Shown in pieces: positions 2,974 through 25,015 of a stretch of 25,448 bases of DNA (the stretch's first letter is position 1; each line of letters starts with the position of its first letter). Source of the DNA: a virus (taxonomy: Duplodnaviria > Caudoviricetes); IMG/VR virus record IMGVR_UViG_3300046717_000185, positions 1-25,448 of that record; one strand, given 5' to 3'. Under the pieces are notes generated by a model. The model did not search any database. It saw only the letters and a program-made list of their open reading frames with translations, and had not been told where the DNA came from. The position numbers were made by a program, and so were the translations under genes.

Positions 2974-3146
2974 TGGTCGGCCACCAGGCCACGCAGACAG
3001 ACCAGGGCGCTGTCCAGGTCGGCCTGCATGGTCGGCAGGTCATCCTTCCAGGCCTGGGGCATCGGCCATCCCCAATGGGCAGCGAGGCGCTCGTAGAGGC
3101 CGCGCAGTTCCAGCCGTTTCTGCTGTTGGGTAAGAGGGTCGCTCAT
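2943..3146 (-). CDS. Hypothetical protein
   Basis: 67 aa ATG ORF, ATGA-coupled to the upstream gene. Confidence 0.7.
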   Translation of the reverse strand: MSDPLTQQQKRLELRGLYERLAAHWGWPMPQAWKDDLPTMQADLDSALVCLRGLVADQCEPLCNPPQ

Positions 3147-3382
3147 TTGTAGCGCATCGTTGCGGCCAGCACCGCCTTGGTCGTGCGATGTTCATTGCGC
3201 TCCCGGCTGATGCGCTTCTTGTGCGGTGCCTCGCGCTTGATCAGGATCACCCCCTCCAGGCAACACGCGGCCAGCGTCGCCGGTTGGTCGGCACTGTACC
3301 CGGCACACCTCGGGCAAAGCTGGCGATGGGTGGCGAAGTCGGCATCGAGCAGCAGCCCGGTGCTGTACTGGAAATCTTTCAT
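3143..3382 (-). CDS. Hypothetical Cys-containing protein (HxxxCxxC...CC), basic C-terminus
   Basis: 79 aa, strong SD (AAGGGAGG) upstream of ATG 3382. Confidence 0.75.
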   Translation of the reverse strand: MKDFQYSTGLLLDADFATHRQLCPRCAGYSADQPATLAACCLEGVILIKREAPHKKRISRERNEHRTTKAVLAATMRYK

Positions 3383-3391
3383 ACCCCCTCC

Positions 3392-3468
3392 CTTATCTAT
3401 AGATAATCGAGAATTTCAAAGTCAAAGTCAAAAGCAACTTCTTTTATATAGATCAACTTCAAAACATT
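3392..3468. repeat. AT-rich tract with palindrome and short direct repeats (candidate unwinding element)
   Basis: Perfect palindrome TTATCTATAGATAA 3393-3406; TCAAAG-TCAAAG-TCAAAAG 3416-3434; CAACTTC at 3435 and 3454; GATC at 3451. Confidence 0.6.
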
Positions 3469-3706
3469 GGGCGTCTCGCCGTTGGTGAGCAGCCGGAACC
3501 ATCCCTCCGGGGAGGGATGAATCGCACTTATCCACAGGCCTGTTTCGCCGTCGGAGCCGCGTGCCGGGCTAGCCTTTCGTTGCACGGGTGCTAGCTTCAC
3601 CGCCCGTATGTGTGGTGCTTCCGCAACTGTCCGACCAGTACCACTGTTCGCCGACGCCCCCTGTCGCTGATTAGTCCCGAGGCGCAAGCCATAACCGCCA
3701 GACGCG
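3469..3706 (-). ncRNA. Putative structured non-coding RNA/ssDNA domain of unknown family
   Basis: Long-range complements 3653-3659/3469-3475 and 3590-3601/3484-3493, stem 3603-3608/3583-3588, perfect hairpin 3500-3519; no credible protein. Confidence 0.5.
3528..3536 (+). promoter_or_regulatory. Perfect DnaA box TTATCCACA
   Basis: Exact match to the high-affinity consensus, about 60 bp from the AT-rich tract. Confidence 0.55.
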
Positions 3707-3796
3707 AAAAAACCTCGTAAGGCGGGAGACGGGTGGAATACAGCGGATGTACGACGCTGCCCGGTTGGGACCGGTCCATCCCCCAGCTTACGAGGT
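3707..3796 (-). ncRNA. C4/CI-antisense-like cloverleaf RNA
   Basis: Minus strand: ACCUCGUAAG/CUUACGAGGU 10 bp stem, GGGGGAUGG/CCGUCUCCC 9 bp stem with two G-U pairs, hairpins CCGG-ucccaa-CCGG and CAGCG-ucguacauc-CGCUG, linker UAUUCCAC, then a U tract. Confidence 0.7.
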
Positions 3797-3803
3797 CTGC
3801 TTA

Positions 3804-3840
3804 TCGTACATCCATGCACCGCACCGATTCCACTCGGCGC
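3804..3840 (-). promoter_or_regulatory. a1b1/seqA-like leader with target sites for the cloverleaf RNA
   Basis: Hairpin GCGCCGA-GUGGAA-UCGGUGC (3840-3821) whose loop complements linker UUCCAC; GGAUGUACGA (3813-3804) is a 10 nt complement of 3754-3745. Confidence 0.65.
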
Positions 3841-3844
3841 GGAT

Positions 3845-3873
3845 AGTTTGCATCTGGGAAACTGGGAAGTAAA
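3845..3873 (-). promoter_or_regulatory. Putative sigma70 promoter for the non-coding RNA
   Basis: TTTACT-17 nt-CAAACT, 4 nt upstream of the leader hairpin; a TTCCCAG direct repeat lies across the spacer. Confidence 0.5.
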
Positions 3874-3891
3874 GGAAAACTTCTTGCCCAA

Positions 3892-4116
3892 CTACTTTTT
3901 CGCGCACCAGTCCGCCCATTCACCCCATAGGGTGCCGACGAAGAGCGCCCCGGTCACCCAGATCGGGGACAGCAGCAGCACGATGAACCAGTGCAGGCTG
4001 AACAACCAGACGATGATCGCCGCCACGCCCAGCGTCGCCACCGCCAGCAGCAGCGCCACAAAGCACCGCTCGACCAGCGTCACCGCCATCTCCAGCACCA
4101 TCAGTATCCTAGCCAT
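3892..4116 (-). CDS. Small membrane protein (two predicted TM helices)
   Basis: 74 aa, almost entirely hydrophobic, AAGGAAGG upstream. Confidence 0.75.
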   Translation of the reverse strand: MARILMVLEMAVTLVERCFVALLLAVATLGVAAIIVWLFSLHWFIVLLLSPIWVTGALFVGTLWGEWADWCAKK

Positions 4117-4274: not shown

Positions 4275-4310
4275 AAAAACAGGGGCACGTCTCTGTAGGA
4301 ACGTGCCCCT
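4275..4310 (-). terminator. Intrinsic terminator-like hairpin downstream of the cro-like gene (tR1 position)
   Basis: Perfect 10 bp stem AGGGGCACGT/ACGTGCCCCT (4281-4310) followed on the minus strand by GUUUUU. Confidence 0.65.
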
Positions 4311-4371: not shown

Positions 4372-4593
4372 TTATGTCCTGCGGCGTCCATGCAGTGGCC
4401 CGAATATGTCCGGCCTCAATTCCAGCCGGGTCACCTTGCCCTTGGTCGCCTTCTCAATCGTTGCCGCCCGAGCCGGGGAGATCGGCTCCCGGCCCAATAG
4501 CCATTGCGATATCGCACCCTGGGTCACTCCCAGCTTCTGGGCGAACTCCTCCTGGGTCATCAGCGTGGTCTTCAGATAGTCGGATAGATTCAT
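4372..4593 (-). CDS. cro: Cro/YdaS-like HTH regulator
   Basis: TQEEFAQKLGVTQGAISQW HTH plus IEKATKGKVTRLELRPDIF tail typical of Cro/YdaS; first gene of the divergent operon; ATG at 4593. Confidence 0.88.
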   Translation of the reverse strand: MNLSDYLKTTLMTQEEFAQKLGVTQGAISQWLLGREPISPARAATIEKATKGKVTRLELRPDIFGPLHGRRRT

Positions 4594-9622: not shown

Positions 9623-9801
9623 GAGACGGAGCGGCAGATAAACTTGCCCAATTGCGATCAGAACTCGCCGCAGCGAATGCGGAGGTGGCACGGCTGCGCG
9701 AATTGCTGGTGGAGGCAAGCAATTGGTTGGGGCATGAGGGAAACCTAGCCTTGCGTGAAGGCATTACCGCCGCCCTCGCCCAACCCAAGGAGCCGACATG
9801 A
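9595..9801 (+). repeat. 28 bp direct repeat pair (9595-9622, 9774-9801)
   Basis: CCTCGCCCAACCCAAGGAaCCaACATGA vs CCTCGCCCAACCCAAGGAgCCgACATGA, 26/28 identical. Confidence 0.9.
9619..9801 (+). CDS. Coiled-coil hypothetical protein, paralogous to the upstream gene
   Basis: SD AAGGA, ATGA overlap; LAAANAEVARLR...LAQPKEPT. Confidence 0.72.
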   Translation: MRDGAADKLAQLRSELAAANAEVARLRELLVEASNWLGHEGNLALREGITAALAQPKEPT

Positions 9802-10064
9802 TCCACGCCGACGATGTCCTATGGGACAAGAAAGCCGTAGCCGACTACCTCCACTACAAGCCGAGAACGATGGAACGGGTCGGCAAACTTCCAGGCTTCC
9901 CGGCCCCGGCCCGACCCGGCAACCCCATCGTGTGGCGTGCCGGGGACATCATCGCCTGGTGCCGCGCCGCTAACGAAACCTCGGAATCGGCGTCCATCCA
10001 AAAAGCAAACCGAGCAAGATCAGCACAGCGAAAAGCCCGAGCAGCACCGTTGCCACAACCTTGA
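9798..10064 (+). CDS. Excisionase/AlpA-like winged-helix DNA-binding protein
   Basis: LWDKKAVADYL......T........PGFPAP........WRAGDIIAW pattern; near the end of the early operon. Confidence 0.75.
   Translation: MIHADDVLWDKKAVADYLHYKPRTMERVGKLPGFPAPARPGNPIVWRAGDIIAWCRAANETSESASIQKANRARSAQRKARAAPLPQP

Positions 10065-22591: not shown

Positions 22592-22592
<1 letters not shown>
20679..22592 (-). CDS. Virion spike/fibre protein with lectin-like (CBM/LamG-like) beta-sandwich domains
   Basis: 637 aa, T/S/G/N/V-rich; NEARFPGARRVEN, GGWYFCW, ATR..D.L, G.IRNVKIW....S.A.L motifs. Confidence 0.72.

Positions 22593-25011
<2,419 letters not shown>

Positions 25012-25015
<4 letters not shown>

Follow-up and report, generated by a model that had tools for sequence, protein, structure and literature searches.

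Antisense RNAs of the C4/CI kind, which RNase P trims to stable small RNAs that act in trans, are known from phages P1, P7 and P4, and the Betaproteobacteria-1 RNA is known as the Rfam family RF02932, each by itself. According to the parts of PMC4825925 and PMC10111431 that describe it, the CI RNA of P4 brings about premature termination upstream of the replication genes and so blocks their expression, and CI is located within eta (PMC10111431, same part). The specificity that separates P1 from P7 comes down to 4 nt in C4 and its targets, as stated in a passage of PMC5320573. For plasmid ColE1, the relevant portion of PMC4412123 describes a transcript whose persistent hybrid primes replication using host enzymes, a G stretch in the primer RNA pairing with C residues of the template for hybrid formation. 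No function for RF02932 is given in the Rfam output or in the main text of its source survey (PMC5737381), where the motif is unnamed, although the supplement may treat its genetic context. Our search, which most primary papers on P1 and P4 lay beyond, found no paper on RF02932 function and none that joins a C4-type cassette to this RNA, the parts of PMC2864571, PMC8201110 and PMC8198154 that it covered included. Judged by sequence, a co-varying C4/CI-type switch without protein targets, fixed ahead of an orphan RNA, is real, and what appears to be new here is the link of such a cassette to RF02932 and to phages without primase or helicase.

The window, that is the whole stretch of 25,448 nucleotides that was analysed, is a linear virus record that is 66% complete. 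Its features around the cassette are as follows, in the direction of transcription of the minus strand.

4372–4593, minus strand: Cro/YdaS-like helix-turn-helix gene upstream of the cassette (phrog_35, E 1.3e-20).
3845–3873, minus strand: candidate promoter, a weak −35/−10 match with 17-nt spacing, in a block near-identical in the two closest relatives (L036, L114).
3819–3842, minus strand: leader hairpin of 9 bp that shows a1 in its loop, from the fold; a1 of P1 likewise lies in a leader hairpin loop.
3827–3833, minus strand: target a1, 7 nt, exact complement of 3739–3733, altered together with its guide in L036.
3804–3813, minus strand: target b1, 10 nt, exact complement of 3754–3745.
3712–3796, minus strand: C4/CI-type RNA of 85 nt, with a 20-bp closing helix with a 1x1 loop, a short hairpin, the b' hairpin and the a' linker.
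3745–3754, minus strand: guide b', in the loop of the 6-bp hairpin, from fold and complementarity.
3733–3739, minus strand: guide a', in the single-stranded linker, from fold and complementarity.
3707–3712, minus strand: U tract of six U directly after the closing helix, a terminator predicted from sequence.
3564–3688, minus strand: Betaproteobacteria-1 RNA (RF02932), the likely regulated element (58.1 bits against a gathering score of 49.4, E 8.6e-10, model positions 1–120).
3476–3563, minus strand: 3' extension of this RNA with a duplicated phage-specific word (3554–3545 and 3485–3476, 9/10 identical).
3383–3470, no strand assigned: AT-rich tract conserved in L036, holding a promoter-like site (3431–3403, minus strand) and the ribosome-binding site of the next gene.
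3143–3382, minus strand: first gene after the RNA region, 79 aa, without family, neither Icd nor an antirepressor, 77% identical in the relative G001.

In lambdoid phages, O and P lie between cro and an endonuclease gene. The matching place in the window is occupied by two short genes together with 500 bp of non-coding DNA, in which the cassette lies. The homologue of the Cro-like gene in G001 matches YdaS/P22_Cro, and no CI gene was found on the divergent side of the Cro-like gene in the window, where the divergent arm carries single-strand annealing, SSB, HNH and excisionase-like genes; virion genes are also present in the window. A terminator-like hairpin at 4281–4310, after the Cro-like gene, would insulate the cassette promoter from cro transcription. 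The left arm is closed by an excisionase/AlpA-like gene (9798–10064 in the window; 18381–18899 in L094) with no integrase beyond it, as in the complete relative G001, and this gene is possibly the relic of a lost integration module. The window also encodes two collagen-like proteins (1240–1971 and 22592–25015), one of which, of 243 aa, sits among early-side genes apart from the tail module. No tRNA was found in the window. The stretch 3383–3900 gave zero blastn matches in phages and two chance 30-nt matches among 72,556 plasmids, and a protein atlas search returned no function for the two proteins downstream of the RNA.

A first, sequence-only reading of this DNA had described a minus-strand cloverleaf with closing stems of 10 and 9 bp, two hairpins and a linker, and folding bears this out. 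The minus-strand fold of 3700–3845 has a free energy of −71.6 kcal/mol (z = −5.55; none of 200 shuffles was equally stable), and the fold is better on the minus strand than on the plus strand (−47.3 versus −43.4). The outer stem consists of 10 bp (3796–3787 with 3721–3712) and the inner stem of 9 bp plus a terminal U-G pair (3785–3776 with 3732–3723); within them lie a 5-bp hairpin (3774–3761), a 6-bp hairpin with a 9-nt loop and a 7-nt linker. The exact 10-nt complementarity proposed between 3754–3745 and 3813–3804 is present; that between the linker and the leader loop is real but extends over 7 nt rather than 6 (3739–3733 with 3833–3827). Among 3000 dinucleotide shuffles, a run of at least 10 arose three times and the combination of 10 and 7 never. 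The b site is found nowhere else in the window. The a site does not recur downstream on its strand, its further minus-strand copies being limited to 17155 and 17110; moreover, neither Icd/Ash (PF10554) nor ANT (PF03374) has a match in the window, in keeping with the claim that a downstream a2/b2 copy and an Icd or antirepressor reading frame are lacking. The candidate promoter scores 7/12, below both scan thresholds, and is proposed from its position and conservation; the U tract and closing helix are absent from the list of a simple hairpin-terminator scan. The observation itself is confirmed and its interpretation supported, the computable steps having all come out as predicted.

To place the cassette among relatives, we collected 39 distinct cassettes from phage and metagenome contigs. 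A first set of pattern scans for the downstream RNA gave 64 distinct loci, in 31 of which a closed helix and U tract were called; 22 were kept after removal of five duplicates and of four that differ in architecture by eye (L001, L018, L021 and L041). A second scan gave 66 further distinct loci with 17 distinct cassettes, two of them near copies of first-set ones (L114 and L154). Four more loci (L044, L127, L134 and L146) are cassette-like by eye and were missed by the scripts, and only L134, from the phage G016, was added, to the genome tally. Matches in genome contigs are chance in most cases, while L082, L086 and L091 look real. Since all searches were anchored on the downstream RNA, they are silent on cassettes elsewhere, and the presence of a U tract in 39/39 is not independent evidence because the tract belonged to the detection rule. 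A promoter-like site lies just upstream of the cassette in 27 of 37 evaluable cases, compared with about 19% in shuffles, two calls (L022 and L165) having been removed as artefacts of incomplete contigs.

The covariation of guides and leader sites on which the sequence-only reading had staked its interpretation was found. The leader of a cassette pairs best with its own interior in 18 of 22 cases, with one tie (mean paired bases 14.2 versus 9.2), and 19 of the 22 are beaten by at most 15 of 300 shuffles. Ranked by duplex energy, the own pair comes first in just 15 of 22, and the window is not among these. In the second set, at most 10 of 200 shuffles are equally good for 13 of the 16 cassettes that have a leader. 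Between the loci L074 and L075, only two of the 82 nt of the RNA differ; both changes fall in b', and each has its counterpart in b1. Likewise, comparison of six one-guide cassettes shows changes on both sides in 4 of 11 leader-guide pairs and in 13 of the 20 pairs of the closing helix, and pairing drops to 28–51% in slid controls. In L002, L009, L046 and L049, the b sites differ between otherwise near-identical phages while the scaffold is kept. The cassette comes in at least five builds (L003, L017, L145, L037, and L002 and its kin), some having two guides, the first hairpin being present or absent, others a single guide placed either in a hairpin or in the linker; linker-guide builds are 61–71 nt long and long forms about 100–110 nt. 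Upstream of the RNA in L001, L014, L041 and L053 we observed a leader hairpin, a closed RNA, a second stem and a U tract, a module that is possibly closer to the two-sided layout of P1.

The Rfam models for C4 (RF01695), c4-2 (RF02944) and c4-a1b1 (RF03163), which the first reading had proposed as a check, gave no match in the window at E up to 10, and the C4 model none in five related records; in scans of the window and 36 loci, matches of the C4 clan appeared only in the P1 and P4 controls, which score 68.8 and 74.9 bits with the C4 model. The models for sRNA-Xcc1 (RF02221), c4-2 and LOOT (RF03000), which are c4 relatives or look-alikes, likewise have no match at E up to 10, that for sRNA-Xcc1 in 0 of 5 records. 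In the reverse direction, R1 is a covariance model built from five sequences of the window's subtype, with rough E-values: its best non-self match is P4 CI (E 2e-4), followed by P1 C4 (E 0.004), whereas the best of ten decoy loci reaches 0.4. The match on P1 C4 (L099, 294–367) begins at the annotated first base. Among 40 sources, R1 did not recover the other cassette subtypes, so that their kinship rests on layout; a MAFFT alignment spanning all subtypes was unusable. The fold is the same as in P1 C4, as is the order of a then b, and R1 finds both P1 C4 and P4 CI, in support of the layout that had been proposed. In a search for a2/b2 in the 350 nt downstream of 22 cassettes, the longest match averages 6.3 for own and 6.8 for foreign interiors, whereas the 8-nt b2 was recovered in the P1 control. 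PF10554 matches in 0 of 10 cassette records (P4 control, 2e-25), and PF03374 in one of the 10, the phage G008, where an antirepressor-like gene lies right after the RNA. By this comparison the cassette RNA likely works like C4/CI, and the cassette is probably a C4/CI descendant, without the protein-target features of that class.

The Betaproteobacteria-1 RNA begins 18 nt past the U tract of the window and had been overlooked in the first reading. In 38 of 39 cassettes the U tract lies 90–109 nt ahead of the RF02932 core, and this adjacent RNA appears to be what the cassette regulates. The region of RF02932 alone has no unusual folding energy (z +1.4). The duplicated word in its 3' extension has an own-locus match of at least 8/10 in 69 of 95 loci, compared with 192 of 570 cross-locus pairs, and A+T rises after it. 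By eye, the third stem of RF02932 (3588–3608 in the window, and in relatives) resembles an H-type pseudoknot with a G run immediately upstream of it, and loops 1 and 2 might pair with each other; the pseudoknot and the loop pairing both fall outside the Rfam structure. The 3' extension also holds, at 3528–3536, a perfect nonamer that we take to be DnaA-box-like, present in only 3 of 95 loci (the window, L036 and L114) and for that reason dropped as a family feature; promoters after the RNA were dropped too (10 of 37, compared with 38% in shuffles). A T-rich short repeated word follows the RNA in 10 of 95 loci (3410–3440 in the window; L011, L012 and seven more) and could be a relic iteron or an unwinding element. 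Where there is no cassette, the RNA often lies behind a Toprim primase or ahead of a primase-helicase gene, and in Acidovorax phage AP1 it follows parB, helicase and primase. In MW202545 (L098, 4218–4790), a tRNA cluster lies between a primase-like gene and the RNA.

For gene content, 33 long records were compared, comprising nine cassette phages (87–100% complete) and 23 that bear the RNA without a cassette; G015, a variant 48% complete, was excluded from both groups. A primase or helicase was found in none of the nine cassette phages, two of which, G001 and G006, are close relatives so that the nine are not independent, compared with 20 of the 23 without cassette (Fisher p 8e-6), and among records at least 90% complete in 0 of 8 compared with 8 of 10. 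The counts are 0/9 and 9/23 for an integrase, and 0/9 and 8/23 for an S24 repressor, the latter difference (p 0.07) not being significant alone. No CI-type repressor is found in these nine relatives, in agreement with the suggestion of a phage with no CI protein. The cassette phages are tailed, 31–43 kb in length and of several virion types, with P22-like, SU10-like, T7-like and HK97-like head genes. G001 and G006, the closest of the complete relatives, carry Cro, SSB and an annealing protein, but no integrase, CI, primase, helicase or initiator was detected in them. Polymerase, ParA and a full initiator were not found among 245 of 288 selected proteins searched with Pfam in eight cassette genomes, or among 52 searched with PHROG; the proteins scanned with Pfam were of 85–900 aa, those left out being mostly small or virion proteins. 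The initiator-type winged helix PF13730 matched in 0 of 16 records. The C-terminal piece alone of an O-like initiator lies downstream of the RNA in G003, G008, G009 and G010, and such a piece also occurs in the short loci L009, L039, L058, L072 and L075. Beyond the four C-terminal pieces, the nine genomes show no initiator, primase or helicase, although many of their proteins have no family and divergent initiators may escape the profiles. G022, which has no cassette, carries an integrase and a repressor, yet gives no primase or helicase match. Two further observations concern individual cassette phages: G001 carries after its terminase a 202-aa gene (L095, 13097–13705) with an RNA polymerase alpha C-terminal domain (PF03118, E 5e-16), and the 43-kb G016 has a sugar-modifying block (L240, 1690–7721) with two epimerases, a split TPP enzyme and a methyltransferase nearby.

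We consider it quite probable that the cassette is a self-regulating terminator switch, in which an RNA with two guides acts on its own leader. The elements follow one another in the order a1, b1, 5' strand of the helix, b', a', 3' strand of the helix, so that the leader-guide pairs are nested and exclude the closing helix. In the nascent transcript, folding predicts that a1 and b1 would pair with the guides a' and b' while the 3' strand of the helix has still to be transcribed; these pairs would enclose the 5' strand, the helix could not form and polymerase would read on. Free RNA would bind a1 and b1 of new transcripts, whereupon the cloverleaf would close, transcription would stop at the U tract and more small RNA would be made. 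Read-through would be limited in proportion to the level of the free RNA, and this level would then follow genome copy number, which could provide copy control and guide-specific exclusion of related phages. In folding, nascent prefixes that end before the 3' strand have at least 10 expected leader-interior pairs in 20 of 22 cassettes, and blocking the leader lets the outer helix form in all 22. Even with no RNA in trans, 18 of the 22 full-length transcripts are closed at equilibrium, the closed form of the window being favoured by about 18 kcal/mol, so that read-through would have to be kinetic; in the window, leader pairing drops to 8.6 pairs as soon as formation of the inner stem becomes possible. 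It counts against the switch that its terminator would depend on a helix closing across about 45 nt of structured RNA.

The same covariation fits pairing in cis and in trans alike, and the nested structure forms readily in prefixes, so that leader-guide pairing competing with the closing helix might by itself set a fixed or pause-dependent read-through, with no trans RNA. We regard such a purely kinetic switch in cis as distinctly unlikely, since the guides vary among near-identical phages on a constant scaffold (the b sites of L002, L009, L046 and L049, and the pair L074 and L075), as selection against cross-talk between phages would lead one to expect, and P1 and P7 are likewise separated by the 4 nt in C4 and its targets reported in the passage of PMC5320573. 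The polarity could also be the opposite, the leader-paired form terminating through a short local hairpin and free RNA promoting read-through. In 7 of the 22 cassettes the 3' arm does fold locally, at −7.5 to −8.4 kcal/mol, but this hairpin amounts to merely −2.6 in the window and 0.0 in L065, and the conserved, co-varying part is the outer helix (the 13 of 20 closing pairs in six sequences), which makes this reading very improbable. That the complementarity is due to chance, or that the region is coding like eta of P4, is hardly credible: an open frame of 164 aa (3891–3397) does cross the whole region in the window, and P4 CI does lie within eta (PMC10111431, as above), but in both close relatives the frame runs for only three codons before a stop, neither Pfam nor PHROG has a match for it, the two complementary matches together arose in none of the 3000 shuffles, and the covariation of guide and leader refutes this reading.

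As to what the switch gates, our best explanation as a whole, to which we give an even chance, is an antisense terminator that limits how much transcription reaches a likely RNA-primed origin. Taken by itself, the proposal that the Betaproteobacteria-1 RNA is an RNA-primed replication origin falls slightly below an even chance. Read-through past the U tract would yield this RNA, which would prime replication of the phage DNA, and the same-strand repeat of the duplicated word could supply a hybrid-forming stretch, as in ColE1, by analogy only. As just C-terminal O-like pieces remain in four phages, the RNA occupies the place expected for the half of O that bears the origin. Against an origin, the RNA coexists with primases, the downstream genes have no enriched promoter of their own and divergent initiators could be missed; since primase genes neighbour the RNA in many phages, it need not act as a primer. 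The same antisense switch might instead control downstream early genes, with the RF02932 RNA as a leader, an antitermination RNA (such as put of HK022) or an sRNA. In most loci the RNA is followed by genes on its own strand, and promoter-like sites show no enrichment behind it, so read-through may feed these genes; the Rha/ANT gene after the RNA in G008 echoes c4-ant, and C4 of P1 controls genes and not an origin. On the other hand, the downstream genes are unrelated across phages (methyltransferase, Mom, NinG, Erf and unknowns) while the RNA and its spacing are constant, and control of early genes leaves unexplained how nine phages 87–100% complete replicate with no primase, helicase, polymerase or full-length initiator detected. 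On balance we think this reading rather unlikely.

The antisense terminator ahead of an RNA-primed origin would give an orphan Rfam family a specific, testable role and would explain how phages of 31–43 kb without detectable repressor, integrase, primase or helicase are replicated and regulated. The C4/CI scaffold would be reused without its protein targets, in a form invisible to Rfam; the cassettes would provide natural orthogonal guide-target pairs, and the downstream RNA is present in a cultured phage, Acidovorax phage AP1. Taken furthest, these phages might be all-RNA replicons, in which a C4-type RNA has taken the place of CI, and RF02932 that of the initiator half that binds the origin; the C4-type RNA would gate the primer and set copy number and incompatibility of a non-integrating, plasmid-like state, the hypervariable guides acting as immunity groups. 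We put this forward as possible, though on the doubtful side.

Like C4 of P1, the cassette RNA is built of a closing helix, a short hairpin, a 6-bp hairpin whose 9-nt loop carries b' and a linker of 7 nt carrying a', and in both cases a1 lies in the loop of a leader hairpin and is followed by b1, the two targets being upstream of the RNA. It differs in that its closing helix has 20 bp, compared with 17 in P1, and is followed by a U tract. In contrast to C4 of P1 and P7, it has neither a2/b2 after the RNA nor icd or ant; the element that follows is a non-coding RNA, and the cassette is not detected by the Rfam C4 models. CI of P4, itself found by Rfam RF01695 and by isrK (RF01394), is the top non-self match of R1 (E 2e-4), whereas P4 has a downstream seqC and holds CI inside the eta/Ash frame, of which the cassette has neither, and P4 controls replication-protein genes of which the cassette phages show none. 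To RNA I and RNA II of ColE1 there is no likeness of sequence, the only plasmid matches being the two chance ones of 30 nt among 72,556 plasmids, with no such Rfam match; the likeness lies in the proposed logic only, a primer transcript and an antisense RNA that sets copy number. RNA I of ColE1 acts by misfolding the primer RNA, whereas the regulator in the cassette lies on the same strand and would terminate transcription upstream of the primer.
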